NCBI RefSeq assembly: GCF_026210795.1
Contig: NC_089436.1
Coordinates: 1,674,001 to 1,738,000 of the forward strand
Source: Rhizophagus irregularis
Taxonomy: Eukaryota
Direction: 5' to 3'
DNA: 64,000 nucleotides
Every line of letters starts with the position of its first letter. Within the stretch, counting starts at the first letter, position 1. Below, piece after piece: positions 693 through 26,700 of the stretch. A program made the position numbers and the translations under genes. Under the pieces are notes generated by a model, which was not told the origin of the DNA, did not search any database, and saw only the letters and a program-made list of their open reading frames with translations.

Positions 693-913
693 GCTTGCGT
701 AATGTAGTATTAGTATGTTAATATTCAAAAATAAAAAACAGTTCCCTGAGGGAACGATCGGTCATGTGATTTTCCCTCACGGCCCGTAAGCGAAATTTGC
801 CAAGAAAAAATATTGTATAGTACATGAGAATATATGTTTGTGAAATCGACCACCAGGGTCAGTTTTTATTATAATACAAAATAATAGTACATCCATAATC
901 GAAGGAGCTAAAG

Positions 914-3700: not shown

Positions 3701-3847
3701 ATACATTTCACAATTATACTAGGCGATCATGTATGCAGATTATATAGCGTAAAAAAATAAAGTATAAGTTATACATTGCGCCTTTAGCTAAATGATATTA
3801 ATCTTCAATAGTCTATAATTAATATATTTCTCAGTCAGTTAAACCAG

Positions 3848-4717: not shown

Positions 4718-5332
4718 ATTAGCGTTTTGGTAGAATAACAGAATATAACGATTTTATTGATTTTAGCCGATTTTAGCAATTTTAGATGATTTAGCAATAT
4801 TATACTATAATAAATATCGGATTCAAATTTATAAGCAACTTTATCGATTTGTAGCCGATTTGGTGGGACTACATATTACTAAACTCAAATTCATTTTTAT
4901 TCGATTATAGGGATTTATATAGGGTCATATCCCTTCGGATTTTATATTTACATGCATATGCACAGCATCTTCGGCTAAATCAGTTTGTGGCATGATGTAC
5001 TGTATATCGTATCACATGAGATCCCCACCAGTTCCTCGATAGTTCTAGGAGAGTTCCAGGAGCTGATGAGTTTCTATAAGTCATGAGATGGTCGGCCCTA
5101 TAAAAAATTATACAGACATCATTCCGCATATAGCATACATTAAAAAACATTAGGAGATTAAAAAGGAGAAAAAGTTCACTATGTGAACAAAACTTTATTT
5201 GATATGCACATGCAAAGCTAATTAATTGACAGGCGAAAATAATCTAAAGGGAAGGATTATCAAATATATATATTTTGGATTTCAAATTCTCTGACGCCCC
5301 GTCAGAAAATCACGTGACTGTGGCGCAGTAGC

Positions 5333-7000
5333 CTATCTAAATTTCTCTCCAAGAGTATCGATATCTTCCCAGCTTAATCCATAGATATGCGACACTGGGG
5401 TCTTTACCCGCTGTATCTTTTCAAACCCAATGGTGCTAAATAAATCATAAATCTTTCTTGCTCTTTCTATCCTTTTCTCAATAGTATTTTTCGATAGATC
5501 GCTTGGGAGTTGCTTTGTAACTTCTTTGACGAGCATTCTCTGAGCCTTACGGTCTCTATGGAGACTTTTGAATCTATCAAACATATTTTCAAGTTCTTCC
5601 CCAAACGAATAATATCGCAAAATAATCTCTTGATTTGTAGCTCTATTTTTTTCTTCAGCTGTAAGGATCGCATTATATAAATCAGTAAGATTGCCTCGGT
5701 CTGCGATTGTGGGTTGTGTATCAGTGGTACTCGATGCAGAGCTTGGTGTTGCTAACTCCTTGATAAGCCTTTTCAGAGTAGGTGATTCCCCGACATTAGT
5801 TAAGGTCTTCTGCTTTTTGCTAGATGATTTTTCGGTAGAAGCAGGTTCCATAGTACGTTTATTCTGCGTGGTACTCGAGCCCTGGGTTTCAAAATTGTTG
5901 GTTACTGTTTCATCGTCGTCAGTTTCCATATCATCAGTTTCCGTATCATTAGTTGATGGACATATAGGGCATAGCTTTCGTGGATTATCGATACAGTTGT
6001 AATGGACAATATGCTTGCAGGTTAAATATACGAGCGGTTTCGAAGGACCTTGAGGTTGAGGGGCGATTCGAAGAAAGCCTAGAGGAGGGAGGGACGAAGA
6101 AAGGTCTTCAGAGCATTTAGCGCATCTCAAAGTACTTTTGTCTTGCTGAGTTACTGGACCCTCGATCCCTAACATCCGTATAGGCGGTGAAGATAGGGCA
6201 AACGTTCCCATTGAAGGTGAAATTCCACTCGATTGGGAGGTCATTCTGGGATCCGGATTGGAAATGATACCAGCTTTATCTAAGATGTCCACACTCTTTC
6301 CACAGTCGGGGGCTGGACATGCGCTTGGAGTGCCAATAAAAAGTCTATTTTCGATACAGAGTCTGTGAAAAATATGTCCGCAACTGAGGTATGTGAACGC
6401 CTTGAGAGGGGACATTAAAATGTCATTGCCACATTCAGAGCATGAACCTAGTTCTGGGAAATCAATATCTCTAACAGTCTTATCTTCGAGACTTTTGAGG
6501 ATATTATATCCAAGGTTTCTAAGGTTAATAAGAGAGGATCTCTCAGATTCCGAAATACTGCTCTTTTCTCTACCTCCATAATCGACTATGCTGTATTGGA
6601 AAGGTAATAATGGATCACTATTATCTGCCTTACCACATGAGCAAAGTAATGTTCCATCTTTATACATTGTTTTCGCACAAGTCCAATGGATCATATCGCC
6701 ACAAACGTTTAAAACGAGCGCTCTAGGTGGATCTTCTGCCAAAATGGGGGTACTACACTCTCCACACGGCCCATAATCCGGGATAGTGTTGTTGGATTTA
6801 ATCGATGAAAAATCTGGCTCTTCACGAAGAATGTCCTCTGGAAGATACTTTAATATATTTAACGCAATTGATTTAAGGGATTTGTTGCGTCTTGGTTGCA
6901 CTTCGTAAATATCTCTTCTTTGTGTGTTGCCGATTGGGTCCATATTGATTTCATCAGCAGTGATCGCTTCCAAATTAACTGAGCTCTCTTGGTTCTCCAT
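5333..7000 (-). CDS. Multi-RING-finger protein (three RING-like units) with helical C-terminal domain
   Basis: CxxC..CGDMIHWTC..CSC, CSEC..CGHIFHRLC..CPAPDC and CAKC..CKHIVHYNC..CPIC. Intact 555 aa. Confidence 0.8.
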   Translation of the reverse strand: MENQESSVNLEAITADEINMDPIGNTQRRDIYEVQPRRNKSLKSIALNILKYLPEDILREEPDFSSIKSNNTIPDYGPCGECSTPILAEDPPRALVLNVCGDMIHWTCAKTMYKDGTLLCSCGKADNSDPLLPFQYSIVDYGGREKSSISESERSSLINLRNLGYNILKSLEDKTVRDIDFPELGSCSECGNDILMSPLKAFTYLSCGHIFHRLCIENRLFIGTPSACPAPDCGKSVDILDKAGIISNPDPRMTSQSSGISPSMGTFALSSPPIRMLGIEGPVTQQDKSTLRCAKCSEDLSSSLPPLGFLRIAPQPQGPSKPLVYLTCKHIVHYNCIDNPRKLCPICPSTNDTETDDMETDDDETVTNNFETQGSSTTQNKRTMEPASTEKSSSKKQKTLTNVGESPTLKRLIKELATPSSASSTTDTQPTIADRGNLTDLYNAILTAEEKNRATNQEIILRYYSFGEELENMFDRFKSLHRDRKAQRMLVKEVTKQLPSDLSKNTIEKRIERARKIYDLFSTIGFEKIQRVKTPVSHIYGLSWEDIDTLGEKFR

Positions 7001-7511
7001 ACCTACCCACTTACCACGCTTGTAGCCAGAAAAAAAATAGCTATCTTGCTGGCTAAAGCTAAAGACGGGTTTTTATATCACTTGTAAATTTCGTAGGAGA
7101 AAACATTCCCCGGATTTTCACCAGCAATTACGCACTGCATTTCGTCATTCCGTTAATCCCCTGCAAATCGATAAAAATGACTTCATGATTAGCATAGATA
7201 TCCCGATCCCATATGCGAAATAATGATTGCTGGAAAAAATATCCATACCCGATTATTGTTTTGTCAGTATGATAGTAGCGTGGCCGGAGACATGACATGC
7301 AAAAATAAATGCAAATCGAATTAGAAAAAAAAAAATAATGTGAATATATATGCGAATCCACGTCACACAGCCCCTATTCTTCGGCAAGAATTTTACCGAA
7401 TATCTTCTGCGCATTTCAGGTGATCGGCCCACATGACGAATATAGAGATGACGTTAATATCTAAGCCACCAACGTGATTCGAAAAAAGAAATGGAGAGAT
7501 AATAGGACTCA

Positions 7512-8150
7512 TCATTGGGGAGGTTTTCCTTTCGTAACCTCCATCACGATAATAATAACCTCTATCGTATCACGTTCATCATATTCATTAAATCCGCCAT
7601 ATCCATTATATCCATCATCATCCGAATCGTCTGGCATCTCCTCTTCAGAATCACTAGAATCGTTATCATCTTCTGACTTAACTTTGTTCGATCCTTCCTC
7701 CTTTAAATCCTCCTCATCAAAATACACATCATAATAGTCTTCATTTGAAACTAAGGATTTCGCTTGCGCCTCTGGTGTCTTAGCGATTACTTCAGACTTT
7801 TTTTCAATCGCTTCATTCATTCCTTCTTCCTTAAAAACCTCCTCATCAAAATAAACTGTAACATTGAGGTGTCACTAGAGATATCGTCTGAATCGTTAGT
7901 TGAAGTAGTAGCCATGGTATCAGAGGTTTTGTTCACACGACTCTGGTGATCACTAGTGATCGTTTTCGAATTAACTTGATCTATAATGTATTGGATTTGG
8001 GGATTTTTGAGTCTTGAAATACTATCAGCATTACAAGTGATACGCTGGACCTTCTTTAGGGTTATGGGGTCATATTCAAACCCAAATAACTTATTTATTT
8101 TTCTTGCCTTACAGGTCATTACGTAAATATCCATTTGAAACGTATGGTTT
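7512..8150 (-). pseudogene. Fragmented hypothetical protein with acidic tail
   Basis: Adjacent ORFs 7817-8134 and 7512-7820 in different frames; D/E-rich end. Confidence 0.4.
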
Positions 8151-8434
8151 CATTTCCTAAATCTCGGATTGTATGTTTTGGCATAGCTTTATATATCCGA
8201 TAATATACTTAAAATGTGTTAACTATAGAGTAGCAAAAAAGAAATTTCCAAATTCCAACCATGTCTGGGTTTCTAGTATCGGCAATAATTTTTCCGAAGT
8301 ACTGTATACTGCGGTTCATTATAATCAACGGTTATAAATACCATTATTTTTAAGATCCGACATAATTTTAATATAAATAAATTAAATCATGTCTTGTCCT
8401 TTCTACAAAATTAATAAACTGGTACCGATAACCG

Positions 8435-9160
8435 ATGGAAGGTCAACAACCTAATCAACAACAGGGAGGTCAACAACCTAATCAACAACAGGGAGGTCAA
8501 CCTAACCCAGCTTTACAAACATGGTACGCGAAATCGTGGGAAGTCTCGAAAAGAATTTATGGTAAAAAAGTTTTCTGCGCCGTTTCTTTGCTAGTCAACA
8601 TATCAATAATCTGTATATTATATCTTTAGAATACTTTAACGCTCTCGTTAAAGTTATTGGAGTGATAGGATCGTTTATATCTTTTTTAATTTACTTTTTC
8701 CGAATAATGGGAGTATGTACAGTAACCTTTATCTGATCAGCATACTATATCAGTAGTTCATTTATAAATGATGCCACCTGTTTCACATAATAACATCTTG
8801 ATTTTTTAGGCGGTGGAAAAATTGGAAAAAACTATGAATGCAGGTTTTAAAGACATTGACCGTAAACTCGATTTCGTTAATAAAGAAATCTCGGTAATGA
8901 ACAAAGAGGTTACAGTCACAAATAAAATATTTGAGGGCAAACTCGGTCTGATCGAGGGCGGACTTGAGCTCGTAAATAAAGAGATTGCAATTAAACGCGA
9001 ACCTGCTATAAATTCGGAGGTAAGAATTTGTGAGCCATATTGAATAATTTTGTTGTTTGATTAATCTAAATTATGTCAATTACAGAATTGGAATTATATG
9101 AATATTATTGTAATTCTCGTGATTCTTGTTGTACTTGTCGTCCTTTTGAAAAGATAAACG
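8435..9160 (+). CDS. Small spliced protein: Q/G/P repeat N-terminus, hydrophobic segments, coiled coil
   Basis: 27-bp tandem repeat (GGQQPNQQQ) at ~8440-8505 and GT..AG introns. One of only two plus-strand genes in the block. Confidence 0.45.
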
Positions 9161-9703
9161 AAAAATTCACCTGTAGGGCCAATGTCGCTCGTTTTATTAT
9201 GAAAGAATTAAGAGTATGGCTTTAGGGAAACTTCTTCTCGCAAATCACTACAAATTTATGTGAAAAAAAATTATTGCTTAATAATAATAGGTCTCTGCTA
9301 ACTTGCTAAGCTGTGTATTTATATTGGTTAAAGCATAACCTTTGTAAGTAATAAATTTCATATAAAAAATAAATAAATAAACAGTAGATTGCATGAAATA
9401 CATACTGTATATAAACCGGTCATTCTTTTTATTCATATAGCCCGATGTGGGCAAACTTTATTAATAAAATGCACACACGCTTAAAAAATTCGAAGTAAAA
9501 TCTTTATTATATTTTTGTAAAGCTGGCTGGCTAAGAAAAATGAATGTAAAAAATGGTAGAGAGCGGGATATTTCTACTCAGTATTATTATCTAACCATCT
9601 GCTAATTAACTTTACTGTACTATATTTCGAATCACTGTATCCATAATAAAAACTTTTTATAGTAGCCCTTTTCCCCGTAAGTTATTTCACAAACTACATA
9701 TAG

Positions 9704-10342
9704 TCAACAGAATAGCTTAAGTTCCAGTCTTGTAGTTTTTTGTTGATCGTTTCCCAAGGAAACGGTTTTTGTGCTACTTTCGATTTCATCATTTCTTAGA
9801 GAAATTTCTGTAACAAGCAATAAGTTGGAAGGGACAGTTGACTCACGTTGAATTTTCTTCTCCCTATTGCGTTGCCTTATCCCATCACTAACACTTTTCT
9901 TATGTGCGAAAGCTTCCATTTTCCTATCCTCCGATAACTTCTGATCTCTCAAACAAGATGGCGCCTTATTACACTGATCTGTAATGGAACTAGGCACATT
10001 GACAACTACTTCGGAAATATCTTTGGTTGGCTGTTTGCTTTCCTCATCGCCATCCCTTAGTTTCACCACTTCGGCTTTAAACTCATCAATCACGCCTAAC
10101 ATTCTTGGCCAAGAATCTCGATTCTAGTCTTGAGTTCTGCATTCTCAGCATCACGTTTCTTACTCTCTTCCATAGCCTGTCTTAGAGCTTCGGCAAGTCC
10201 GGCCTTAAGCTCAACTTTCTCGGACTTAAATTTGGCTAACTTTCTTTTAAGATCAGGCATTCGCCATTCTAAGCTCTGCAATCTCAACTAAGAGTTTAGC
10301 ATTTAATTCTCTTAGTGAATCAATGGAGTGAGAATTTGTCAT
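9704..10342 (-). pseudogene. Coiled-coil protein, frameshifted; related to the 492-692 family
   Basis: MTNSHSIDSLRELNAK.. followed by DAENAELKTRIEIL heptads across frames. Confidence 0.45.
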
Positions 10343-10469
10343 TATTTTTTTACAAAATATGCGATATATTCAAAATAATAAAAATCACACGTTTTTCCTT
10401 ACGAAGAAAAATTTTTATTAATACATGTAAAAAATAAATACAAATTCGGGACGTAGCCTGCAATACATA

Positions 10470-11640
10470 TTATTTTTTGATAAATTTTTTGATCCTAGCC
10501 CTCTTGCTAGTTGGGGAACTATCTCCACTAACCCGATCCTTCAATAACCCTACAATTATGCCGATTACCCTTTTTACATTGCTTCGAAGTAATTCAGGAT
10601 TATCTTTAACTGCAGACTTTGTGAGATTAATTTGGTATTCACTTCCACTCGTAGAGTATATACCATCCGGAGTATATATTATAAAATGCCACTCCGTACC
10701 TGTAGTCACAATGCCATAGAGATAGTCGAAATAATCTTCATTAAACGCTTGATCCGCTGTTCGTTTTTTCTTATTTGTTTGGAACGCACTTTCAAGTTGC
10801 GCCAGATTCTAAGAAATATAATACATCACTCTTTAGTCGTTTCAAAACCAGTAGACTAAGAAGACAAACCGTCCTACCTGCGCATATCCAATCTTAATAT
10901 TACGTGGTTTCCCTTCGGTGATGCAAAGAAGTTCTTCTAGACTTTTGATTGCATAATCTACTCGGCCTGTCGCATCTTCACCAGAAATATCTTTTTGTAA
11001 AACTATGAATATATCTTGAGAGGTGAGTTTTTTAGCGATGGCAATTGACGCATGTAATATAGCTGAAATAAATTCACAGCGTGTTGCCTCGTTAGCATCG
11101 GTCATGGTCTCCACGTTCGAAAGTTTTAAGATAATGTCCTCCATACAATGATCGAATGCCTTATCTTCATCACTAATCTCCTCGTAGACTACAGAGAAAA
11201 ATAAAGTTAATATAGCTATCTAGTCAGCTTCGAAAAATAATCACCTACCAGGAGTGAATTGCTTGATGTTTGTTATATCTTCCCCATTGACCTTATTTCT
11301 ACGTAACATTTCCTTCAGGTCGTCGAGAGTTTTAAGCGAGGAATAGTTTCGTAATTTCTGACTGAGACCTTCGATAAATTCTGCAAGAACTGTTGCTGGA
11401 CCTAATGTGAGGCCAATACTGTGAAAGTCCTCTTTAGTTAACTTGAGAAAGGCTAGACCGGTGATTTCTTCCTTTCGTAAAATTTTAAAGTGAGACTCTT
11501 TGAGCTTCAGGTCTTTCCTCCCCAAATATTCGATAAGCTCCTCTGTATTAAAATCCTTAATCGACGTCTGACATCGTTCTAGTGGGAATTTCTTCTGTTA
11601 TTGAGGCGGGTGAAGCAGGTGAAGAAGCTTGTGAAGACAT
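10470..11640 (-). pseudogene. SAM-domain + REase (HsdR-N-like PD-(D/E)xK) protein; 3 exons, one frameshift near 11560
   Basis: SAM: ILRKEEITGLAFLKLTKEDF..GLTLGPA. Nuclease: GRVDYAI..ITEGK..GYAQ and GIVTTGTEWHF. Confidence 0.7.
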
Positions 11641-12012
11641 AGTGTTTATATATATGTGCTTGTGTTTGTGCTTGCGAAAAAATATGTACTTGACTGCAGT
11701 TACAGGTAAAGCTGGTTTATGGATATAAAAGTATTTTGGTTTCCGGTGTAAAGCGCTCGGAGAGAAATGATAGATTTTTTGTATCGATTCATAATGCATT
11801 TGCCCAATATATATGCAATTAAGATGTAGTACAGGATTGTCAGGCGATTATGTTACATCATTACACGTGACATTTTTCAAGAAGAACAGATCCTGAAAGG
11901 ACCACGTAAATAATATTTTATTTATGAAATAAAAAAAGTTGCCGGAAGCCGGCCTACAATACATAAAATTGCGAATATATCGCTACATGATACGAATGAA
12001 AAATTCTTACTA

Positions 12013-12312
12013 CTAGGGGTATACAGTGATATGGAAGTGCTCTGCTTTAGGTTCCTCAGAAAAATAATCGGAAATAGTGTCCTCATACCCATCCATTTCC
12101 TTTTCAATACCACCGGCTTGAATTATACAAATTTTTTTGAGAATGATATTATTAAATGGTGCCCCCAATCTGCTTCTAATTGCAGTCTGAAGGTCAATAT
12201 AACTTCCATTTTTGCGAATTGAAATTGCCTGCATTACTTTAATGCATGGAATATTCACAAGTTCTCCTATAGGAACAATAAGACAATTGAGAGTAATGTT
12301 TTCATCGGTCAT
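12013..12312 (-). CDS. Crinkler (CRN) N-terminal ubiquitin-like domain, stand-alone
   Basis: ITLNCLIV at the start; ends ISDYFSEEPKAEHFHITVYP, matching the CRN HVLVxxP terminal motif. Confidence 0.7.
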   Translation of the reverse strand: MTDENITLNCLIVPIGELVNIPCIKVMQAISIRKNGSYIDLQTAIRSRLGAPFNNIILKKICIIQAGGIEKEMDGYEDTISDYFSEEPKAEHFHITVYP

Positions 12313-12914
12313 TTTTGATTCCTAAATACAAGACCCATGGTGAGAAAAACTCATTCCCATACATACATAACTTCTGGCATATACATACCTTATTTTGCGT
12401 TAGCTACGCTAGTGAAACTATTTTACAGGAATATTTTTGCGGAAAGTTGGCTGAACTTCCACATACCTCTACATGCTTTATATCTTGCTGGGAAAAAGAT
12501 AAGGAGGTATGAGGCGTAATTAGTATTGTCGTCTGATGCCAAGAGTTCCATGAAAGCATATGTAAACGGAACCCTCATACCTTTTCACATGTAGATCTAC
12601 CGGAGAGACATAGTTGGCTTTACGCCTGCTGATCTCGGAATTGCGACTCCACTAGCCTTTCATAACATATGCTTTTGTCAGCACTATTTACTTTTAGAGT
12701 TGGTCCTGTGTTGCATGTAGACCTCCTTTCACATTTTTCTCATGTTGGTTTGGGGAAAAAATAGAGGTACTGGTTAGTATATATTTTTTTTTTCGAATAT
12801 ATATGCGAAATTAATATGTCGTACAGACCTAACTGATGATCCACTTATTTTTCTGTAGCACAATCTGTGGCCCAGCAAATTCTTCCGAGCTGAAGAGGTC
12901 TTAAAGGGACCAGA

Positions 12915-13319
12915 TCATTGACCTCGGACTGACCAATATATACCATCCGGCCAGGTCCTGGAGGGACCCCATATTTCTGATCGAAGTTCAAGTGGATAAT
13001 ATGGTAATTCTATTAGACTTATTATTTGTGGGAGATAAATAACATTGGATTGTAAGAGTACATGGAATAATGACGTTGGATTACTTACACTGGGTAGACT
13101 ATATACAAATCGCTTAAGTATTTTCTCTCTCCAATACTTGACCACTTTTGTGTTCCAATGGGTCTTAATTTCACAAAAAAGGTCATCCCAGTCGTGCCAA
13201 TCATCATAAATAGTCCAATCCTCTTCTCTCTGTCCATATTCTTTGGTAAATTCATTGAAGGCTTTCTCCTTCTCAGCATCTATATCCTCATCAAACATTT
13301 TGCTAATATTGTAGATCAA
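12915..13319 (-). CDS. Hypothetical Trp/acidic protein
   Basis: 134-aa ORF between two ~140-bp direct repeats. Confidence 0.4.
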   Translation of the reverse strand: MIYNISKMFDEDIDAEKEKAFNEFTKEYGQREEDWTIYDDWHDWDDLFCEIKTHWNTKVVKYWREKILKRFVYSLPSVSNPTSLFHVLLQSNVIYLPQIISLIELPYYPLELRSEIWGPSRTWPDGIYWSVRGQ

Positions 13320-13471
13320 TTATACTTAATAAAAAATAAAGTACTGGTAGCGTGCATAGCTTCTTTTCAGTATATGCGAAAATTAATATGCTTTAGCGCC
13401 TTAACGGCTGTCGCACAAGACCTGTCTGATGATCCACTTATTTTTTGTCGCACAGGAGTGGCCCAGCAAAT

Positions 13472-14395
13472 TCATCCGAGCTGAAGATCACTGCTCCGGA
13501 CTATTGATCTAGCCAACCCTGGATCGGAATACCACTGCAAATTATCTCGCATACTTAAATCTAAGAGGCGCTGAAGTCCCTGAGCTAAAATCTGTCTACT
13601 AAAAACGTTGTTCTGTATAAGATGATTTCTAACTGCTCTAATGAGATCGGGAGGTGATAAAGTTTCCTCGAAATTCTCTATGTGGACATTTGGATTTAGC
13701 TTATTTACGGCTTCTTTGCTAATTTTATAACACCCCCCTAAATTAAGATATTTTAAATTGGGACATGATCTAGCAATTTCTTCAATAGTTATATCAGTAA
13801 TTTCACAATAGCTAAGGTCAAGTTGTTGGAGCCTCGGGCAGGAGCAAATAACATTACAAATTATTATTTCAGAAAACCCTGTATGACCCGAAATATTTAG
13901 ATATTCTAGTTTGTGGCATGAATTTGCGATTGCAGATAAACCTATATCGCTTTCTGATTTAAATCCGTGTAAAGTAGATATATTAAGATACTCCAAATTT
14001 GGGTATGACTTTGCTATTAGCTTTAGAGTTTTACCAAAACGGTCGTCTGTACTCCCTTCGAAATTTAAATGAATTATATTTGGGAATGTGTGTACAATGC
14101 CTTTGATTTTTTTATTTGAAAGTGAAGGATAGCGTGTTATTTTAAGATGAGTTAGTTTTGAGCTATAAACTGGCTTTCTTCCTCCTCCGGGTACTATTTT
14201 TAAAAATCTTTCTAATCGAGTTCGATCCTCTGCTTCCCCTCCCTTTAGCTCAATACGCCTCCATAGAATAGGAGCACCGCATCTGTACCACAATCGGGAA
14301 ACATATAGAGCGGGATAGAGAGATTTATCTATCAATAAGAAATGTAAAATATGTTCTAGTACTTCTGGTAAATAAAAGATGCTTGTTTGCGCCAT
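13472..14395 (-). CDS. F-box/LRR protein
   Basis: [26 protein letters not shown] is an F-box. LRRs include [26 protein letters not shown] and [12 protein letters not shown]. Confidence 0.9.
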
Positions 14396-14489
14396 AAATA
14401 GTCTGTATTATATGATGTATCTTTAATCGAAAAAATAAATTAGCCGAGCTGGTAGTGGTCCGAAAAAACTGGATCTACCGGATGGGAAA

Positions 14490-14927
14490 CTAAGACAGGT
14501 GTTCATTTCCTCCTCGCCTGTTCTCGAGACATTGGATCACTTCAGATCGAATCAAATTCGGATCACTACCGGTTAGTATCTGCAATTTCAGATAAAGTGG
14601 AACATCTAATTTAACTAAAATTACATATAACCTATTTAGAGGATCCGAAGGTTCCTTATGGGCAAACCGGATCTTTGCCTCTTGATTGAGGCCTCTGAAG
14701 AACCCTTTTTCCATCTCTGCTTTACGTAAATCCAGACCTGATAATGAGGTGTATTCCTTATATTCCTTATACGCCTCAAAAAATTCATTTAGTAATTGGT
14801 TATCTTGAACCGGTACTGGGCTATCTTTACCTTTTTCAGGTTCCAATATTGGTGAAGTTGGAGGCCAATTTTGATCCAGCCAATTAAATGTATCGTATCC
14901 TTTAGGTGACAGGCTATCTATTTTCAT
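14490..14927 (-). CDS. Hypothetical protein
   Basis: 145-aa ORF preceded by the shared upstream motif. Confidence 0.5.
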   Translation of the reverse strand: MKIDSLSPKGYDTFNWLDQNWPPTSPILEPEKGKDSPVPVQDNQLLNEFFEAYKEYKEYTSLSGLDLRKAEMEKGFFRGLNQEAKIRFAHKEPSDPLNRLYVILVKLDVPLYLKLQILTGSDPNLIRSEVIQCLENRRGGNEHLS

Positions 14928-15026
14928 AATGGGTTAGTTTTTATAGTTACTGTATCTTTAATCAGAAAAAAAAACATTCTGAGCCTAGTCCGCCGATAAT
15001 CACTGCTTTCTATCAATTAGCTTAGA

Positions 15027-15338
15027 TCAAGATTTTTTATTATATGCATTTTTCTCCTGATCTTTCTTTCGGGCTAGGCGCTCCCGAATCCTTTGATACT
15101 TAATCATGTTTACTATTACATCAATGTCAGAATCGGATGAACTGGATTCGGATGAGCTGGATTCAGATGAACTACTCTCGGATGAAGAACTTGATTTAGA
15201 CGAACTACTCTCAGATGACGAACTAGACTCAGACGAACTAGTCTCGGATGAGCTTGATTCAGATGAACTAGACTTGGACGAAGTAGAATTGGGCGGGATA
15301 TTAGTTAAGGCCGTCAAATGCTTTGGGTCACTTTCCAT
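15027..15338 (-). CDS. Ser-rich low-complexity protein with basic tail
   Basis: (SSSES)n encoded by 15/21-bp repeats; preceded by the shared upstream motif. Confidence 0.5.
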   Translation of the reverse strand: MESDPKHLTALTNIPPNSTSSKSSSSESSSSETSSSESSSSSESSSSKSSSSSESSSSESSSSESSSSDSDIDVIVNMIKYQRIRERLARKKDQEKNAYNKKS

Positions 15339-15548
15339 TTTGATTATTTATAAATTAAACTTAATATCTTTGATCGAAAATATGTAAAGTGCTTGACTCA
15401 TCAACCCACTTCAAACTACTAACCGTTTAACCTTTCTTAGTCGTGCCTTCCTTCGTTGCTTATGAGGGATATCCTCGCTCTTTCTTATCACAATTGTCTC
15501 GACCGAATCAGATCCTTCAGAAGATTCAGACGAATAGGAGGAAGCTCC

Positions 15549-15893
15549 TCATACGGCGCCTCTCGACCCTTTTTTACCAATAAGCGAGGGAACTATTTCA
15601 TGTATTATGTCGACCACAGTTTCCCTATCCACACATTCGTCCAGATCCCCAAATTCGATTTTTAAGGATCTTATGTCTTTTTCCAGTCTTTTTACCCTCT
15701 TTTCTAAAGTATTATTTTGGGAATGACAATCTTCGAATTGTTTCTTTAGTGCCTCTCTTATACTGGAAAGCGCACTATATGCTTCTACATTTTGCTTATC
15801 TGCCTCCAATAATCGGGCTAATTTTTCTGTATTTGGGATAACTCCCTGCTCGCTAGCTATACTATCGGATGAATGCTTTTGATCGGTTACCAT
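15549..15893 (-). CDS. Coiled-coil hypothetical protein
   Basis: LEKRVKRLEKDIRSLK heptads. Confidence 0.5.
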   Translation of the reverse strand: MVTDQKHSSDSIASEQGVIPNTEKLARLLEADKQNVEAYSALSSIREALKKQFEDCHSQNNTLEKRVKRLEKDIRSLKIEFGDLDECVDRETVVDIIHEIVPSLIGKKGSRGAV

Positions 15894-15975
15894 TTTACGA
15901 TACTTTATAATATGCTATATCTTGTCTGGACGAAAAAATAAAATTAATAAATGATGTCTAGCCCACCTATTGTGA

Positions 15976-16497
15976 TTAGTTTTCGTCGAAGAGCTCACGT
16001 AGCTGTCGATACTCTTTTTGAATTCTGTTAGATCTTCGGATAAGGTCTGGATCTTTGGCATAGCTATTAATAATCTTGGGATTCACTCCGGCTTTTACTA
16101 ATTTTTCACGAAATCGATATTGACGTGAAGCGCCTGCTATGACTTCTTTTTTATCATTATTTTTCGGTCCTAAATTTATACTATATGCGAATATCCCACT
16201 TATTACCAGTCTTGGCACAATATTCTGCCCTTTTCTCTATAGTAAACTTCTCCTTTCTTTTATCTGGTACGAGACTTTCTTCTTTTTTACTATATTTGCG
16301 CCGGTTAGGAGATCTTGACACATTTGCGGGCCTCCCAACCCTGTAATGAAGCACCAAGCTCTTTGTTGTGTTTACTCAGTTGCTTTGGACTGGACTTGGC
16401 AGATAAGTTATATTTTTCTGAAAACTGCTCTAGGATCGATTTAAAGTTATTTGTTTTGGGTTTTCGGGCCTTTGGGGTTGCTTTTGTAATAGCCATG
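15976..16497 (-). pseudogene. Truncated paralog of the recombinase N-terminal domain (no catalytic domain), frameshifted
   Basis: MAITKATPKARKPKTNNFKSILEQ..KYNLSA and LGPKN..GASRQ..FAKDP..SNRIQKE align with the N-terminus of 16930-17823. Confidence 0.75.
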
Positions 16498-16604
16498 CGA
16501 TATCTTACGGCCAATTTGAAATTTGCAGATAGATAGGATATGTGAAAAAAATACCCCTCAATCATAAATTTTGGGACCTAACAAAATTTGCCGAAGGCGC
16601 GTTG

Positions 16605-17823
16605 CTAGTAACTATACATATTGATAATATCAGATATTTCATCATTTTCTGCAGACTCCGATTCTGGCTCTGGGTTGTGATCAGATTCTGAGTCTTCTGT
16701 TTCCGTATCACCTTTAGAATAATTATTTCCAGCATCGAGACCTATATAATGTCTTAATGCGATTTTTGTAAGATTGCTAAGATGCTGAGGGGTCGATTTG
16801 GGTCCACCATGAGTCCTGCAAGCGTGCTTACCTCCTATTTTTCTTAAATCCTTTGGGAGAGACTTATAAGGCTTTTGTTTTAAGAATTCATTAAAGCTTC
16901 TAACATTACCAATATTACGTTTCCCATTTTTATCGTGTATTGACGGGATCACGTAACTTTCCAGCCTTAATTGCCTCTTGAATCCAGATAAGCAATTCCC
17001 TTGCACGTTCTGGATCCTTTTCCATAGAGAGAAATCGTCGTGGGTCCTTCTTCCCCTTATCCTTTTTATAACCTATGCAATACCAAGTATAACCCCTTTT
17101 ATACCATGCGGGCGGATCCTCGGATTCTGGTTCATAGTGCATAATCTGAAGAGATGATACTTCTGAAGGTCTCATGCTCAACATCACAATCACATCTGCG
17201 AGATTCTCTCGATTAGGTATTTTAGAAGTATCTATATTTTGAAGCCTTTCACATACCCTCGCTAAAGAGAAGTGTGGGGGGATTCCATCCGAGTTAGCCA
17301 TTGTCTCATCAGTTCGTTCTTTCTGAATTTTATTAGACTCTTGAATAAGTTTTGGATCTTTAGCAAAGGTATCAATAGTTGCGGTATCTACCCCACCTTC
17401 TGCTAACTTCACACGGAATGTTGACTGACGCGAGGCACCAGCAACGATTTCATTTTCATCTTTATTTTTCGGACCTAACTCCAAATGATGGGCGAAAATG
17501 TCCAAAGCAGTACCGGCCTTAGCACAGTATTTTGCCCTTTCTTCTATGGTGAGCTTTTCCTTTCTTTTGTCCGGCACGAGAACCCCTATCTGCTCTTTGC
17601 TAAATGCTTTTCTTTTTTTAGTACCTCTGACAAGGAGATTTTTAATGCTCTTGCGGTCTGTCCAATCATGTAGTTGAGCATTAAGTTCTGGAGCATGTTC
17701 TCTCAATTGTTCTAAGGTGGAGTTGGCCGACAAATTATACTTATCTAGGTGCTGTTCTAAAATCGTAACAAAGTTATTAGTTTTCAGCTTTCGAGTCTTC
17801 GGGATTGTTTTTCTGGTAGCCAT
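16605..17823 (-). CDS. Tyrosine recombinase-fold protein (topo IB/protelomerase-like motifs); one frameshift at ~16945
   Basis: MLSMRPSEV (R), GYKKDK (K), PKDLRKIG (KxxR) and ALRH..NNY (H, Y) occur in the canonical order. Confidence 0.7.
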
Positions 17824-18159
17824 GCTGACAATAAGTAGTTATATTTGTTATCTACTTATACATACATAGAAAAAGTTTAATTCGAAAAAAAATATTCCGA
17901 TGATTGCGTTTATTTTAGTAAACGACGGCCCCCACTCATGGTCGGTGGGCAAAAAGAATATTATAACTTATTGCGGGCTCTCTATGAGGCCACGAGTTCC
18001 GGCCGGGATATCTTTTATATATATTTGAAAATTGTGGGTAGATATGATATGCGAAAAAAAAATAATAATAATTTGGAATTTTATATCGCCTAGTTGTAAA
18101 GAATAAATAGACCCTCTTACCCAAACACCTCACCTATAAACCGGCTTCTTATTCGCTTT

Positions 18160-21100
18160 TTACCAAAGCATACCATTCTCCTGGAGTATGCTTACTGTTT
18201 TTTTCCATTTCTCGTCAGTATCAAGCCAGGAGGATGTAACTCCATCATCCTCGAGCCCACGACGGATAATTTCTTCTCCTATTAATCTTTCCCGTACTTT
18301 CATGTCCATATATTCTTTGGGATCTTCTTCTAACTCTTCTGCCCAACCACACATTCGTGAATCAGTTTCCATCCTATCCCGAAATGTAATGGAATCGAGC
18401 CTGTCTTTTTCGGTAATGGTTACGAAGACATCTGGATCCTCACCAAGTTCGACTGCCCTTTTTCTGAGACGCTCATCTCGCTGAGCTCTGGCCAAAAGTA
18501 TGGCAGACGATACTTCATTGATAGGCTTAGAAGAATCGCGCTTGACATTTGTTTCTTTAGAAGGCGTATACACTACTTCACAAATAGGCTCATCTGACTC
18601 AGGATGCTTGCTAGTCTCAGGACCATCGATTAGTGGCTCAGCTGTTTTAGAAGTCTCGGATGTGCCAGATGTTGAGGCGACCGGAGCACGTGTATCTTCT
18701 GCCATATAGTCAAAAAGAGATTGGGTCAAATCGTCCTGTTTATTCGCCTTCTTATCTTTACTAGTACTAAGTGGAGGCGTATTCTTTTCTGGAAAAGGTG
18801 AGATTATTTTGGGAGGGATAATTTCCGGCACATTAAATATAGGTATGTCTGCTGTCTCATTTTCGGGTAAGACAGGTTGAGGTGTATCTTCGATAGGTGT
18901 ATCGGAAAATTCTTCCATATCACCTAGGCCAGATTCATGGAGCTTAGCTATGATCTTGGAGCGGTCGAGAATGTATTGCCATTCTCTTTTCCCACCACCC
19001 ACTCGTCCCTGTTTACATTCAATAATATTTTTCTCTGATAGCTTCTTGCCGAAAATGTTATTAGAAAATGGCTTTTCACCATTATCCCCACACCATTCAA
19101 GATATTTTTGATATAATAATGTTCGACCTGTCTTGACTATACTATTCTCAGCCCAGGATCCAATATGGTCAATAATAAATCGAATGGGATTGGGAAGTTG
19201 GTCTCGCATTATATCTTTTTTCATTTTAGTATTAGGAATTTCCTGTGGCTCAAAATCTGAAAGGTCACGACTAAGAAGATATTTCATAACTATGCCAGGC
19301 GCATCAGAATGGTCAAGTATATTTCCTAGTCTTTTGAAATACTTTGTATTTCCTCTACAGCGTGTAGAGACATTAAAACAAACTACACGAGAATCACCTA
19401 TGTCTATTTTGAGTGGCGCATCCTGATTACTAGTAATCATATACCCGGTGAAGTCTTTTAATCGTTTAGTTTCAAGACCTTTACGTTCTATAGCAACTCT
19501 TCCTTCTGTTATGAGAGATTTGAGATGTTCGTTAAACTTATACCATTCCCCACTAGACATTCCAGTCTCATTCATAATGATAAGTTTTCAAGCTTGAATG
19601 GCGCTATTAAACCGCCCAAGAATTTTTTCTAAATCCGATGTTGCGAAATGAAGATGTGGTCCTAAGACTTTATCTCCAATAAAATCTGTAATAATATTTT
19701 TTCCACACTGTTGTAGAGTGGATTTTAGTACTAAGATTGATCGGGGCTTCTGTTGTGGTTTCTGCACTAAAAGGGCCCACCAGTTCCAGATATACTCATT
19801 AAGGACTTCATTCCCATCGCAAATTATATTTCTTACATGCCAAAGGATCAGATCCATAATTTCTTTGTTAATATCCATCGCTGGCTTAGCCAAAAATCCT
19901 AGGAAAAGGTTAAAAAATTCTGTGTTTGGTTGAGGAACGCTTATGGGATATGGGAGGAAATCATAATTTGCGTAAACTATTAGACCTTTAATAACTGCCT
20001 GGTCTATCAATGATTTTAACTTCACTGCTTCACCTCCATATTCGATTATTTTAATCACAAACTTGGCAAGTTTTAGTTCGGCTCCCATACCAAAGTAAAG
20101 CCCATTTTCTGGATCCCTATGTTTTAATATCCAGACTGGCTTATCCAATTGAATATAGGCAACGGTTGATTGGATTGCTTTATAAACTTCAGCGCGGGAG
20201 AATTTACTACCTGAAGTACACATACATATTAAGTCCCACCATACAAAACGATCATTTGGGTTCGAAATTCTGGGTTGTTCTAATCTTACTGGACTCAGAA
20301 GTTTTTTTCCCTATCTAAGGCTGTCTCGCTAATAGTAAGCCTTACTGAGGGATTTCTAGTTCCAGGTTCTCTTTCATGGTTTGCACGATGGCAATAAAAT
20401 CTATATGTTTTTTTATTTCGTAGGATATATGCATTATCACTTTCATGTTCCCGATCACATATTGGACAGTGCGATGGGGAGTTGCGTACTAATGGAAATA
20501 AGTCAGGGATGTTATCTGAAGGAAATGAGAGAGTATAACCTTCGATAGAATTATCTCTAAGTAATGTTTCTATGAAATCGAATTCAGCCTGATCATTTTC
20601 GATATTGGCATCAGTATTTTCATTTCCTTTGATCGGGCATCTCTTAACTTCTGGCTCTGAAACAGTCAAAAGAGGACTATCAATGATTCTGGAATCATCA
20701 TTGGGCGGACGAATCATAAAGTCAAAGATGGATCCATCTTTTGGACGAATAGCTTTTTTTATACGAACATGTTTGTCTGTTTTTTTATCATATTTGGGCG
20801 TTCCAAGCATCCGCAAGGAGAAAGATTTGAAAGAACCTATATTTGCTATATTATCAATTATCCTTTTTTTCTGTAATCCTGCTGGAAGTTTCTTGCGAAC
20901 AAGTTCGGTGAAAGCTGAAACCTTAGCGATATTTGGAAGTCTCATGCTGAAAGTTAAGACATGTAGAGATATTTTTTTCTCATCACTACTTTCGGCAATA
21001 GACATAGTTTCTTTATCCCATTCTGGGAATATTTCTAGGCAAATATCTCTAAAGGCGCGACAAAGTAAATTTTTTGCCTGACCGCTTGAAAGCTTGGGGG

Positions 21101-21368
21101 TAATAGCATTTAATGCTTCTACTAGTAAGTCAAAATCTATAATGGGGCGGAGTGGTTCATCACCATCGATGATTTCGTGTAAGGAATGGCCTTCACGTTC
21201 TGCGAGTATGGCCTCTATTTCGTCCTCGTTATCTGCGCCAAGGAATTGTCTTGGTCTGACGCTATCATCACGAATTTTATATTGGTATTGACCTACATCG
21301 GAGGCTTTAAACCCACATGGGGCGGAGGCGTCGGAGAGGAACTCTGAAAGCTCAGAATGTTCGGTCAT
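18160..21368 (-). CDS. AEP primase-Zn finger-SF3 (D5/DUF5906-like) helicase-wHTH; frameshift at ~20305 and in-frame TGA at 19588
   Basis: AEP: RPIIDFD, KISLHV, IIDN..SLRM. Zn finger: CPICDREH..YCH. Helicase: QQCGKN (Walker A), IIMNE (Walker B), MITSN (motif C), DSR. wHTH: LYQKYLEWC..FGKKL. Confidence 0.85.
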
Positions 21369-21485
21369 TTTTTCTCAAGCAATTTACGATAATTTATAGT
21401 TATACCAAATCTCGAGGTATATTATTCACAAGAAAAAAGTTTAAAATGAAAATAATTCCCCGACATTATTAATTGATATATACAA

Positions 21486-21797
21486 ATGGGAGGCGGAAAA
21501 AAGGTGACACTCTGGAATTTTTATTATTGTCCATATATTCTTAGGACTGGAGAAGTGTGCAATCGGAGATGCTATCATCCAAAGGGATGTAAAGTCCATC
21601 GAAAATCTAGGCAAGTTCCTTGCAAAGAACCCGGGTGTGAAGAGAATACAAGATCCAAATATGACTATTGCGATACACATGCAAAAAAACATAGATCAAG
21701 GGAGCATTATCATCAGAAAAAGCAGGCTAAGTTGGCTTCGGCGGAGATACTGGTAGGTAATTTAGAGGTAAACAAAAATAATACAACTTATCACTAG
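21486..21797 (+). CDS. Small Cys/His-rich zinc-binding basic protein, divergent from the primase-helicase
   Basis: CPYILRTGEVCNRRC..CKVH..CKEPGC..YCDTH. Confidence 0.65.
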   Translation: MGGGKKVTLWNFYYCPYILRTGEVCNRRCYHPKGCKVHRKSRQVPCKEPGCEENTRSKYDYCDTHAKKHRSREHYHQKKQAKLASAEILVGNLEVNKNNTTYH

Positions 21798-21814
21798 TGG
21801 ATCCCTTTGGGATC

Positions 21815-22220
21815 GTGTCACTAGAAAAAAAAGCTGGTGACAGAAGCCAGTGACGCAGACGATAGGCTCTTTAAGAATTCTAAGCTGAAAGAAATCTTTC
21901 TCGATGAGTGTCACCAGTGTCACTAGCGTCACTAGAAAAATCTGAGTTCCTTAACTTTTTTTTATTTTTTTATAGCATATATACACTATACATATATCAT
22001 ACCATAATATATATACATCATAGAAGATAGCATAGAAAAAATTCGTTTTTTTTTTCAGAATTTATTACTCTTTTACTAGTGACACTAGTGACACTAATCA
22101 AGAAAGAAATGAAATAGCATAATAACCTCAAGAAGTATAACGAACGTGTCACTAGTTCTGTCACTAGTTCCGTATACTAACTGATGACACTAGTGACGCT
22201 CAAAAAATAGCATACACACT
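21815..22220. promoter_or_regulatory. Putative replication origin unit A: GTCACTAG iterons in both orientations around an AT-rich core
   Basis: About 11 GTCACTAG/GTCACCAG-type copies, including 9-bp-period triplets at 21908-21935 and inverted copies at 22076-22096. Confidence 0.55.
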
Positions 22221-22339
22221 GCCTCAGCTGAAGAAAAAAATAGAGCTACAAATCAAGAGATTATTTTGCGACATTATTCATAAATTCGGCTCGATAAAAT
22301 TAAAAGGTTTGATACAATACAGAACTGGCCTTAGAAAGT

Positions 22340-22845
22340 TGTCCATAGAAAAAAATCGGACTATGAATGCTTCTATGGACGTCGGAAGTAGGTTTTGGGC
22401 AGTTTAGATTCCTGGAAAGCCATCCAGATGGGTGACCGATAGTGACCATAGAAAAAAATCAGACTATGGACGTCAGAAGTAGGGTTTTTGATGCTTTTAG
22501 ATCTCTGGAAGGCTTTACAGATGGGTGACCATAGCGACCATAATGACCATAGAAAAAATCGGATCTCTTAACTTTTTTTTTTATTTTTAGCATAGCATAT
22601 ATTACACATATACCACCCATATAGCATAAAAAATGATCGCATATAATGGAACATTTATAGCATAGGAAAAGTTTCGAAAATTTCCCTACAACTTTACTTT
22701 TACTATGGACACTATGGACACTAGGGACAAATATAGAAGAAAAGAAGCAATAAACTTAAAATCCCCAAAAACGATACCATAATTGTCCATAGAAGCGTCC
22801 ATAGAAAAATTTCCCTATGGACACTCAAAAAAGTAGCATACACAT
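22340..22845. promoter_or_regulatory. Putative replication origin unit B: same architecture with GTCCATAG/GACCATAG iterons
   Basis: Triplet at ~22525-22552 and inverted triplet at ~22703-22728. Shares the flanks CTTAACTTTTTTTTTATTTTT..AGCAT and CTCAAAAAA(G)TAGCATACACA with unit A. Confidence 0.55.
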
Positions 22846-23704
22846 TATCTCCGACCCAGATTAAACCATGATCGGACCTCGGAAGTGCTTACAACATCCC
22901 GCCAATATACCGGCAACTAATAGGCAATAGTTGGTGCACTTCCGGCAATCAAATGGGTCAGGCCAAGATAATACATATGCACCTCCAATTCTAGATACAA
23001 AAAATATGTGGCACAAATGCATATATATTGGGTTCCGGAAACATTCCCAGAACATTCCCGTCACTATCCCGTAACTATGTGAGGGTGTTCGGACGCCGAA
23101 CAGGATCACGTGACCGGCGCAGTAAGGCGCAGTCAAAAATCGCTCCATAAATTCGGCCAGTTCTTTAGACATAATATTTCGGCATCCAAGCTGGCAAACT
23201 ACCAGTTCCCTACCAGTTCCATGGCAGTTCCACAGTAGCTACCAGGTCACTACCATGGCACCAAGTTGGAACCTCAAATCATGTGTCTAAAAGATCGGCC
23301 GAAATTATGGCATAGTGCCGGCCGAAATTAATCGCGGATCTAGATCGAACCACTGCTTAGCCCGACGTGATATTTTTTTACGTATTTCGGCATTAGCACA
23401 ACAAAATAAGTAAAGAATAAGCCTCGACACCTTAACAGGCAACCAAAGAGACCCAGAAGCAGGTAAACAAATAAATAGCTCTTTATTAATAAAATGAGCA
23501 CAGACCATTGAAAATAAGCAGATAGTTAGAAGGTAATAAAAAAGAAATAGAGCAATAAAATCAAATAAATATCTACAAAGCAATAAAAAAGCTACAAAAT
23601 AATAAAATCAAGTAGATAGCAATAAAGCAATAAAAAAGGCCATAGAGCACGAAAACAAGAAAGTAGGTAACATTATACCCATAAGTAGGTAACATTATAT
23701 AGCA

Positions 23705-23737
23705 AGTAGTTAACAGTCTAATAGACTGTTAACTACT
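23705..23737. repeat. 33-bp palindrome (16-bp arms, 1-nt centre)
   Basis: AGTAGTTAACAGTCTA-A-TAGACTGTTAACTACT. Confidence 0.95.
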
Positions 23738-26700
23738 AATTTCTTTGACTTGATAGACGGTCTTGATGTAAGTTTTTTCTTCTTTCTTTTCGTTTTCTCT
23801 CCTTTTTTCTTTAAAGTTGGTACTAATAGGACCCCGAAGAATACATATATAACTCAGATCTAGACTCAAAATTTTAATATAACTTTATACACTTAATTTT
23901 ATTAAAAGCTTTATACAAAATCATCATATAAGTTTAAATTTTATTATAAATTATACAATTTCAGATGTGAGTTTATATATAATCAAAATTATTTTTTATT
24001 TATACTAATAAAATTTCTTCAATATCTAATTATCACATTAGTTTTGTGTAATTATATGAATTATTTCTTTTTGTTTAAAAAAATCATAATAAGTTTTTGC
24101 TTTACCTAATAATTGAAGAGTATTATCAAAATTTTGTATATCCTATATATCTAAATGATAAAGAACATTCTTTGGACATTGGTGTGTAATTAAAACTTGA
24201 CCTTCTTCTATTTTAGCTGAAAAAATATTACGAATAATAGGAGTAAAAACTTTAAGAGTTAAATATGATATATTTTCAATATCAGTAATTGGTTCCTGAT
24301 TATAAGAATGATATCCATAAGCTTCATAAAAACTAGAAATTACTTGTCCGATACAAAGTTGTACTCCAAAATAAGCTATAACATAATTTTGTTCATTAAG
24401 AGGATTATTATGATTAATATTTGCATACTCTATGTTTTTAACTATAAACAATTAAATTAAAAGTTAGTCCAAAAGTAAAATTTTAATAAATATTAATATA
24501 AAATTATTTTAATTTAAACTTACTTAAACTTTGATTACTAGATAAAATTTTTTGTTTTTTATCTGATAATTTACTTTTGTAAATATTAGCAATAGATTGA
24601 CTTACAAGTTTTCGTTCATTTTTCCATCTTTTTTCTTGCTGTTTAACAAATCACATTTCTGCATTTTCATTTTTAGTAAAAAATGATACAATATGATTTG
24701 CTTGATTTGGATTAATTAAATCTGAATTGATTATTCTTGTATTATTTGTCTTGATTGTCCATTCAATATTTCGAGAAGTATAAGCATTATGCTTTTCACG
24801 TTGATAAACCATTTCTTGAATATCAATTCCATTTTTAGTGACAAATATCACATTATCGAAATCTTAAAATTAAAAAAAAATTTAAATATTTTTAAAAAAG
24901 TTTAAAATATGTAAATAAAATATAGTAACCTGTGCTAATCATGTTTTTTGAAGTTTCTATTTCAACCATATCAATAAAAGAAAGTTGTTTTTTGCATTCA
25001 TTTAATGATGAGTTTTTACTTTCATCATTTATATCCATTTTATTTCTTTCATTTTCTCTTTACCTCAAAAGATCCACTTCATTAGCAGCATGACTAATTA
25101 TTTGAGAAAGACCACAATTAGATAAGTTTTCATTCGAATTCTCCCTATCCTGCATGTATTTATCATTTGAACCAGAAATTTCTATATCATTAGGTGTTAT
25201 TAAGACATAAGGCCAAAGTGAATTAATAGGTATAATATCAGGTGTTAACATTTCCAAATATTCAGCAAGATTACATGCTATTTGACGTGATTAATCAAAT
25301 GTATGACGAATTTGATCATCATCTGGCCAGGTTCGTAATAGATTAATTTGATCATTTTTGATAAAATTTTGATTATATTCAAACTGATACCCTAAAATTA
25401 AATAACTTATTTTTAAATGTACTGATATAAATTATAATACATACAAAAATCATTTTACTTACCTTCACGTACAGATTTATCTTTATTAAAAGATATTTCC
25501 TTCGAATTTAATGCTTTAGTATAATGTTTTATTTTTGGTACCATATCTAACAACTCTGCAAAGTCAAAATCGGCGTTGACTTGTCTTGCTGCACCAAAAA
25601 AATGCTCACATGCTTCTGAGTCATGTATTCAAGAAACAAGAGGATATTGATTATAGAAATCTCTATGAGCTTTTACGAGTAAAACCATTGATTCAGCCAA
25701 TAAAGTAAGTATTGCAAATATTTGAGATGCAATAAAATTCTGGTTAGAGGAAATGAATTTAGGGTATTTTCGTGCTAATGTATTTATATGAAATCACCAA
25801 ATTCGTAAAAAAAAGTAGGATATCATCACCATTCTTATTCGTTCAATAGAAGTAATATTTCGATTCAAATAACTATCAACCAATTCGCCTACATCAATAA
25901 TAAAAGGTAATCAATTTCAATTCATATTTTTTATTATAAAATCGGGAATACATACCAATTATAAATAGATATACAAATGTTTCTTCAAATTCAGGTTTGA
26001 TTTTATTATTAGGATCGAGACAACATTTCAGATTTTTAGGACAGAAAATTCGATAAGCAGCACCATCATCTTGTCGGTTAAGTTTATATATATATATCAC
26101 ATTTATACATAGGACTTTCAGGGTGAGTAAGCAATTTTGTAAAATGGCCAAATCCCACGGTAGAATGATTAAGTGAAAGAACTCGAGCACCTGATATTGC
26201 TGCATTACATCCTATTTTTTTAGCATGTTTAGGGTCCTGAACTTGTATTACTGGTCCAATATTTGGAAAAATCGGACAATTGAAATCAATATTGTATGGT
26301 GAATAACTAATTCTAAGTCTACTGGAAGTTGATATTTATTGAACTTGATTTTGCGCATTAAACTCAACTTGAGCACTATCAGATCCAATCGAAATTATAT
26401 GTAATTTAAGTTCTTGCGCAAAATCTAGAAGTAATGTATGTATGTCCAATATTGATTCCGTTTTATCAGATCCAAGATTAGAAAGAAGAGCAATAATAAC
26501 GGAAGGGAATTTTGGCAATGGAACCTAATATATGATTTTAATCATCAATAACCGATATTAATGCAAATGTATTAATTACAGTTTTAACTTACTTGCAATA
26601 TATATACTCTTACATATTTGGCAACAGCATTATTTTTTTTGATTTTATCAATTGTGATCGAAATATCATTATATGTTTTAATATTTGTTTCATTATTTGA

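Follow-up and report, generated by a model that had tools for sequence, protein, structure and literature searches.

Telomere resolvases, or protelomerases, have been found in bacteria, in phages and in some viruses of algae. Those considered here are TelA of Agrobacterium, TelK and TelN of phages phiKO2 and N15, ResT of Borrelia, and the Pfam family PF16684. According to one account, all known protelomerases cut 6 bp apart within a self-complementary 6-bp core (PMC3558466), and asymmetry in the core is reported to block hairpinning and to favour recombination (PMC12270096). Homology does not fix the reaction, because TelA can be made into a recombinase by point mutations (PMC12270096).

Three kinds of eukaryotic element come close to the one described here. 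Phaeovirus EVEs of Ectocarpus, which linearise at a telRL-like site, are a precedent in eukaryotes (PMC13236599). Like the fungal element they are integrated in a eukaryote and combine a telomere resolvase with a palindromic linearisation site, which in the fungus is only a candidate; however, as described there, the phaeovirus is a giant virus with a capsid and a separate tyrosine integrase, whereas the fungal element is small, has one such enzyme and yields no capsid match. Polinton-like viruses (PLVs) have a primase-helicase between a terminal repeat and a recombinase-fold gene (PMC11296320, PMC7805220). The first of these reports, the nearest anticipation of the present element, notes abundant distant primase-helicase homologues in Rhizophagus irregularis and guesses at many PLV-like elements. 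The fungal element differs from PLVs in its resolvase-like enzyme and in its cargo, which consists of F-box/LRR, RING and SAM genes; neither a capsid nor an ATPase or protease was recognised in it, and no long terminal inverted repeats were seen. Crypton/Glomhopper (DUF3504), DIRS and Starship elements also carry enzymes of the tyrosine-recombinase superfamily on Glomeromycota or other fungal mobile DNA (PMC13465315). Glomhoppers, though, consist of a single DUF3504 ORF whose enzyme has an R-H-R-Y tetrad, and the main text of that paper does not contain 'primase', 'helicase' or 'telomer'; the family described here has no DUF3504 or other recombinase Pfam match.

The window, by which we mean the whole 64-kb stretch of R. 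irregularis DNA analysed, carries a gene whose product shares with telomere resolvases the fold of the linker helix and catalytic domain, the R-K-x-R-H-Y set at similar spacing (H to Y is 10 here and 11 in TelA; PMC3558466) and the G-x-x-K strand, with a palindrome and a replication gene nearby that recall the N15 layout. It differs from them in its 11-16% identity, in forming its own clade below Pfam detection, and in belonging to a fungal family in a eukaryotic nuclear host, with many integrated copies and an odd-centred palindrome. In the full-text literature we found no protelomerase or telomere resolvase for arbuscular mycorrhizal fungi or Rhizophagus, and this family was not described in any of the literature listings; such elements may stand in repeat libraries under other names. 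We regard it as a new, divergent telomere-resolvase-like family, carried by a fungal mobile element that is apparently undescribed.

The gene, its catalytic codons and its frame break

In the ORF list the gene appears as two overlapping minus-strand frames, 16930-17823 (297 aa) and 16605-17072. Residues are numbered after the intact 404-aa relative P0002.

16605..17823, minus strand: telomere-resolvase-like gene, encoding 404 aa if read like its intact relatives
Residues ~17-176: helical N-terminal part, ending in a long linker helix
Residues ~180-370: catalytic domain, followed by an acidic tail
16719..17172, minus strand: catalytic codons R218 (17172-17170), K254 (17064-17062), R326 (16844-16842), H357 (16751-16749) and Y367 (16721-16719), with the variable K323 at 16853-16851
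16937..16945, minus strand: apparent frameshift, with 4 bases in excess and one base substituted relative to locus L001 and run contigs

The original prediction had read an active site R(PSE)..K..KDLR..H-x9-Y across a 1-nt frameshift. All of the named residues are present in the two frames: M-R-P-S-E holds R218, Y-K-K holds K254, K-D-L-R runs from K323 to R326, and H357-x9-Y367 completes the set. The frameshift itself has to be described differently. Alignment with the intact, 98%-identical metagenome locus L001 places a 4-base excess, net +1, at ~16937-16941. In contigs of runs X2, X8 and X11 (3/3 spanning runs, from three studies) the 4 extra bases are absent and an A stands at 16945; a contig of X4 has the same substitution. 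The window's form of the break occurs in 0 contigs, X15 being the one of four runs compared that lacks cover there. Because all spanning run contigs lack the 4 bases and none shows the window's form, the break is probably an assembly error and the gene intact in the organism; since variants can be dropped in contigs, and one run may be the window's own source, this evidence is strong but not final. The X11 contig is of low depth and carries a further 1-base deletion. The X2 contig (over 16284-17966) differs from the window within the gene only by the A at 16945 and the missing bases, whereas P0275, the closest of the other copies in that assembly, has 12 differing residues, so the run contigs do not derive from that paralogue. 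A real 1-nt frameshift was rejected, and so was the 23-aa intron of the public R. irregularis gene model P0001, which simply jumps over the break; P0001 has 100% identity to the N-terminal frame.

A sister family of telomere resolvases

In a wider profile search the family comprises at least 636 proteins; narrower searches gave 120 close relatives and 389 representatives at 50% identity. Among the matches listed, the named members all come from Glomeromycota and span 11 genera, a count outside which the distant members P0249, P0258 and P0259 stand; at least 8 gene models carry the prefix of the window's assembly, and the public labels include one 'integrase: PROVISIONAL' and two 'integrase'. 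No sequence-level match to the protein was found in Pfam and PHROGs, in PDB sequences or in phage and plasmid records, and pattern scans of IMG/VR and prokaryote genomes, sensitive to close relatives only, found no relatives.

Conservation was counted over 149 proteins that span the catalytic domain, and 94 rows gave the same picture. R218 is conserved in 133/149, K254 in 146/149, R326 in 135/149, H357 in 128/149 (with Q in 16/149) and Y367 in 137/149. The Gln belongs to a subfamily (P0003-P0013) in which it replaces the catalytic His and R, K, R and Y stay. Position 323 is variable (K 63, S 51, R 25, E 4, G 3, H 1, gap 2; n=149), so that the H-x-x-R of classical tyrosine recombinases could be read in 1/149. 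Compared with the window, dN/dS lies between 0.20 and 0.54 in 27 of 28 loci, the remaining one being saturated, and stops interrupt the aligned part in 24/28. Low dN/dS combined with stops in most loci points to purifying selection while the element is active and decay after insertion, as would be expected of mobile DNA.

In order to compare folds, residues 125-372 of L001 were modelled from the 94-row alignment. The model has a pLDDT of 89 overall and is weak only towards its end, falling under 50 at model positions 235-248, around Y367. An earlier model, built on a shallow alignment of 34 rows, could not be relied on in the catalytic domain; its Foldseek result was meaningless, and its N-terminal part had no clear structural match. 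Against the PDB, Foldseek placed TelA at ranks 1-5 and 7 (best E 6.8e-4, prob 1.00) and gave TelK prob 0.99 and topoisomerase IB prob 0.21. Structural comparison by VIA gave Z 11.0 for TelA (223 residues aligned at a high rmsd of 9.6), 10.0 for TelK (203, 8.7) and 8.7 for ResT (141, 4.2), ahead of XerH (7.1), Cre (6.4), lambda Int (5.9) and poxvirus topoisomerase (4.9; topoisomerase IB range 4.5-4.9). Across 48,161 chains the top four rows were all telomere resolvases, followed by SroF (7.5) and MrpR (7.4); the superfamily fold is shared with integrases at Z 5-7.5. The N-terminal helical part reached Z 4.7 to TelA 121-195, amid many unrelated helical matches.

Profile-profile comparison agrees with the fold. 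The sets were 40 non-redundant telomere resolvases, 13 integrases (all cyanobacterial) and 12 bacterial TopIB. Forty-five family rows matched the resolvases with prob 95.8% and E 8e-9 over 179 columns that include the linker helix, as against 0.21% for the integrases, 0.13% for TopIB and 0.11% for a reversed control; the high value was reached after domain trimming and with a deeper resolvase set, hhalign with untrimmed alignments having given only prob 24% and E 9e-4. Ten 13-row subsamples gave 70-92%. The matched columns include R..E, G.xK, R and H, with the H-to-Y end aligned at a small shift, and the R-K-x-R-H-Y active site aligns with the resolvase residues. Language-model neighbours in the ESM Atlas gave PF16684 as the best named cluster for two queries (19/30 matches in one, ranks 2-3 in the other), and in a viral library the highest-probability match was a coccolithovirus telomere resolvase (0.90, E 0.04). 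At its curated cut-off PF16684 was not matched in Pfam searches: it is absent from the complete list of 10 families for 34 members and from the first 25 of 63 for 94 members.

A quick tree of 56 sampled rows (14/45 family, 20/40 resolvases, 12/13 integrases, 10/12 TopIB) resolves these four groups and nothing further. The phylogeny thus places the family in a clade of its own (100 SH-aLRT), and its joining with the resolvases reaches only 66 SH-aLRT. Taken together, these results make it very probable that the protein is a homologue of telomere resolvases; it is a member of a sister family of theirs, not a formal member of PF16684 and not a topoisomerase.

The link to protelomerases was already part of the original prediction, and fold, profile-profile comparison and language-model neighbours bear it out: a tyrosine-recombinase fold is present, R/K/R/H/Y are conserved, and TelA, TelK and ResT rank ahead of Cre and topoisomerase IB. 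The argument then offered for it, KDLR as a KxxR motif, does not carry over, since K323 occurs in 63/149 and the position varies in protelomerases too, so the relationship rests on fold and profile. The third catalytic position of the 40 resolvases is K in 20, H in 12 and other or unread in 8, and it is Tyr in TelA and ResT (PMC3558466); KxxR was therefore rejected as a diagnostic. The parallel link to topoisomerase IB falls away on the Z-scores and profile probability given above. That the enzyme is not a standard Crypton or DIRS recombinase agrees, at the level of Pfam scans, with zero recombinase matches: PF00589 had no match in the protein (Pfam scan, 34 members), and DUF3504, DUF3435 and reverse transcriptase had no Pfam match in the protein or in the scanned neighbours.

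Several bacterial and phage resolvase genes (L177/L185, L089/L090, L112/L113) are found in pairs that mirror each other about a point, the pattern that an assembly running on through a hairpin end would be expected to leave.

The surrounding element and its palindrome

The gene lies in a GC-richer block with the following features.

1..23740, no strand: GC-richer block, 37% GC against 26.5% in 23741-50000; nearly all long ORFs on the minus strand
13472..14395, minus strand: F-box/LRR gene; homologues after the resolvase gene in 4/28 related loci
15976..16496, minus strand: tandem duplicate of the N-terminal part, 67% nucleotide identity, without catalytic domain; follows the resolvase gene
18160..21368, minus strand: primase-helicase in three pieces, upstream of the resolvase-like gene; matches PHROG primases
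20295-21368, minus strand: primase-like piece with DFD, SLHV and Zn motifs
19588-20310 and 18160-19587, minus strand: D5/SF3 helicase pieces (DUF5906, E 1.6e-8; Pox_D5)
21486..21797, plus strand: small Cys/His-rich ORF; homologues beside the resolvase gene in 4/28 related loci
21780..23260, no strand: non-coding region with short repeated, iteron-like motifs, a putative replication origin

The primase-like piece, which we take to be an AEP, has no library match for a primase. Run contigs agree without difference with the in-frame stop (TGA, 19588-19590) and with the frameshift around 20300; the breaks in the primase-helicase are therefore real decay. We read the window copy as having an intact resolvase and a dead primase-helicase. 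Seven public gene models fuse primase-helicase parts to the resolvase (P0044, P0048, P0087, P0119, P0212, P0218, P0355), which places the two genes side by side in other genomes as well. In L026 (1-2355) the primase-like domain is joined to a herpes origin-binding (UL9-type) helicase (PF02399, E 3e-22) and lies divergent from a resolvase homologue. Judged by this sequence comparison the replication module is exchangeable, because the same primase-like domain occurs with another helicase type.

The F-box/LRR gene is likely cargo. SAM-domain ORFs and ORFs that we take to be Crinkler-like lie within the block (1986-2540, 10842-11525, 12013-12312) and are possible cargo too. An 81-bp direct repeat (86%; 12817-12896 and 13409-13487) flanks the ORF 12915-13319, and in other copies the joints pass over this unit, which suggests cassette-like gain and loss of cargo genes. 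The 628-bp segment 22225-22852 is likewise skipped in other copies, with joints in three runs; its first 55 bp are a 98% copy, inverted, of a stretch of the RING gene (5607-5661), and its second half repeats the 21936-22096 motif block. The tandem N-terminal copy has breaks that are not the same in the window and in run contigs, with several small indels at 16274-16314; the assembly is therefore locally error-prone, and the public gene models there may be wrong. At 52165-58842 there is a degenerate, partly colinear second copy of left-hand genes (2978-3592, 3848-4717 and the RING gene 5333-7000), with no resolvase or primase relic. To the right of the block lie a tandem array of ~ten 50-bp units (26961-27665) and a Plavaka transposase relic (30047-32761; PF18759, E 2e-13).

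No separate integrase was found in the element's part of the window, and no giant-virus core gene was matched among the window ORFs scanned. Pfam, PHROGs and a repeat search revealed no double jelly-roll capsid, packaging ATPase or terminal inverted repeats; several ORFs have no family and the left end may lie beyond the window.

Three features suggest where the enzyme may act.

17831..17859, no strand: inverted repeat with 8-bp arms and a 13-bp spacer; 7 bases lie between its end and the start codon
23661..23738, no strand: array of three direct half-sites (23661, 23683 and 23704, spacing 22 and 21) and one inverted
23705-23737, no strand: perfect palindrome, 16-bp arms around a 1-base centre, made by the last two half-sites at the GC boundary and element edge

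The palindrome, known from the window's copy only, is the longest perfect one in the 64 kb; 0/200 window shuffles and 0/500 local shuffles reach it, and IMG/VR holds no exact match. AT-rich DNA elsewhere in the window has inverted repeats with 15-bp arms, and another repeat begins ~30 bases to the right of the palindrome. The palindrome can also be read as 13+7+13; as assembled, it has an odd centre and contains no self-complementary 6-bp core. The array is a candidate resolution or recombination site. With one mismatch allowed, its half-site (a pattern picked after the array had been seen) recurs once in the window, at 17846-17857, right before the resolvase start, where it forms one arm of the inverted repeat. 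We infer a link between gene and palindrome because both share this half-site motif.

The upstream inverted repeat occurs once in the window and in 10/28 family loci (10/17 with the 5' flank read), always just before the gene, and 431,789 bases of control sequence contain none. Near-copies make up six of these ten loci, and spacer lengths of 13 to 19 are rather loose for a site bound by a protein. One base is swapped on both arms in L003, nearly so in L025 and on one arm only in L016. As a DNA hairpin the repeat is not strong (z -0.4). It is a candidate operator or binding site.

Elsewhere in the window, a duplicated AT-rich segment (29268-29323 and 53906-53961) has a perfect palindrome with 12-bp arms, and other long inverted repeats stand at 52726, 53245 and 53428.

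Proposed resolution, possible integration, and meaning

Starting from the family, the fold, the conserved catalytic set, the neighbours, the palindrome and the shared half-site, we take the protein to be a divergent TelA/TelK/ResT relative carried by a multi-copy primase-helicase element of Glomeromycota, and hold with moderate confidence that it resolves replicated palindromic junctions of this element into covalently closed hairpin ends. By analogy with the known enzymes, a dimer would bind two inverted half-sites, and Y367 of each subunit, helped by R218, K254, R326 and H357, would form a 3'-phosphotyrosine; the freed strands would fold back and be resealed as hairpin ends. The element's primase-helicase would start replication internally, and the free form would be linear with hairpin ends. 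Opening of an end, followed by its joining to host DNA through host repair or the reverse reaction, could give rise to chromosomal copies, and an opened end would leave a short palindrome at the element edge, such as that at 23705-23737. The inverted repeat before the gene could serve autoregulation. The main difficulty for hairpin formation is the odd centre of the palindrome, because known resolvases need a symmetric 6-bp core; read as 13+7+13 it resembles a recombinase site equally well. Every copy seen lies in a chromosome or on a short contig, and the element's part of the window showed no separate integrase, which suggests that the same enzyme also integrates the element. Hairpin resolution and an integrase role are not mutually exclusive.

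A strong rival, though less probable, is that an enzyme descended from resolvases works instead as an integrase/excisionase, a Cre-like tetramer recombining 13+7+13 sites with a circular free form, as in PLV modules. The odd-centred palindrome with its extra in-phase half-sites, the many chromosomal copies (the gene models with the same assembly prefix) unaccompanied by another integrase, the latent recombinase activity reported for ResT and TelA (PMC12270096), and the same two-gene module beside inverted repeats in PLVs (PMC11296320) would all fit. However, fold and profile favour resolvases, long linker helix included; the spacer is symmetric but for one base and would give little directionality; and no att-like partner or target duplication was identified in the window.

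That the genes are dispersed remnants of a large DNA virus or of another element, with the palindrome and GC block unrelated or part of the adjacent repeat, would account for the stops in most related loci and for the repeat right of the palindrome, and giant-virus remnants are reported in R. irregularis (PMC10640383, PMC7017919). We consider this improbable, given that the neighbours recur across 11 genera, that one primase-like domain is common to two helicase types beside the gene, that the palindrome's half-site recurs directly before the resolvase gene, and that no giant-virus core gene was matched. A topoisomerase IB-like relaxase or nickase aiding the primase-helicase is the least probable of all: it would share the chemistry and the Lys at the third position of the window copy, and resolvases are reported to relax DNA on asymmetric sites (PMC12270096), but K323 is not conserved in the family, the structural match is weak (Z 4.5-4.9, Foldseek prob 0.21) and a profile match is absent (0.13%).

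Hairpin resolution, if correct, would give the first protelomerase-based replicons of fungi. Tentatively, and with somewhat less than even confidence, we propose a widespread unnamed class in arbuscular mycorrhizal fungi: self-replicating, capsid-less, linear, hairpin-ended nuclear replicons that encode a D5- or UL9-type primase-helicase of their own and a resolvase that also drives integration, and that spread genes of the F-box/LRR, RING and SAM kinds. Such replicons would then account for some of the unclassified repeats and orphan genes in these fungal genomes. About two-thirds of R. irregularis repeats are given as unclassified in one report (PMC11075540), and helicase-primase genes were filtered out as transposon-related in another (PMC8647823). 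The element lends itself to direct tests, because its enzyme is named, there is a candidate site for it and intact alleles occur naturally. To our knowledge, the multinucleate symbiont is not routinely transformable. The element could reveal extrachromosomal DNA in this multinucleate symbiont, and its enzyme could be a natural case of the transition from resolvase to recombinase, so far made by mutation only.
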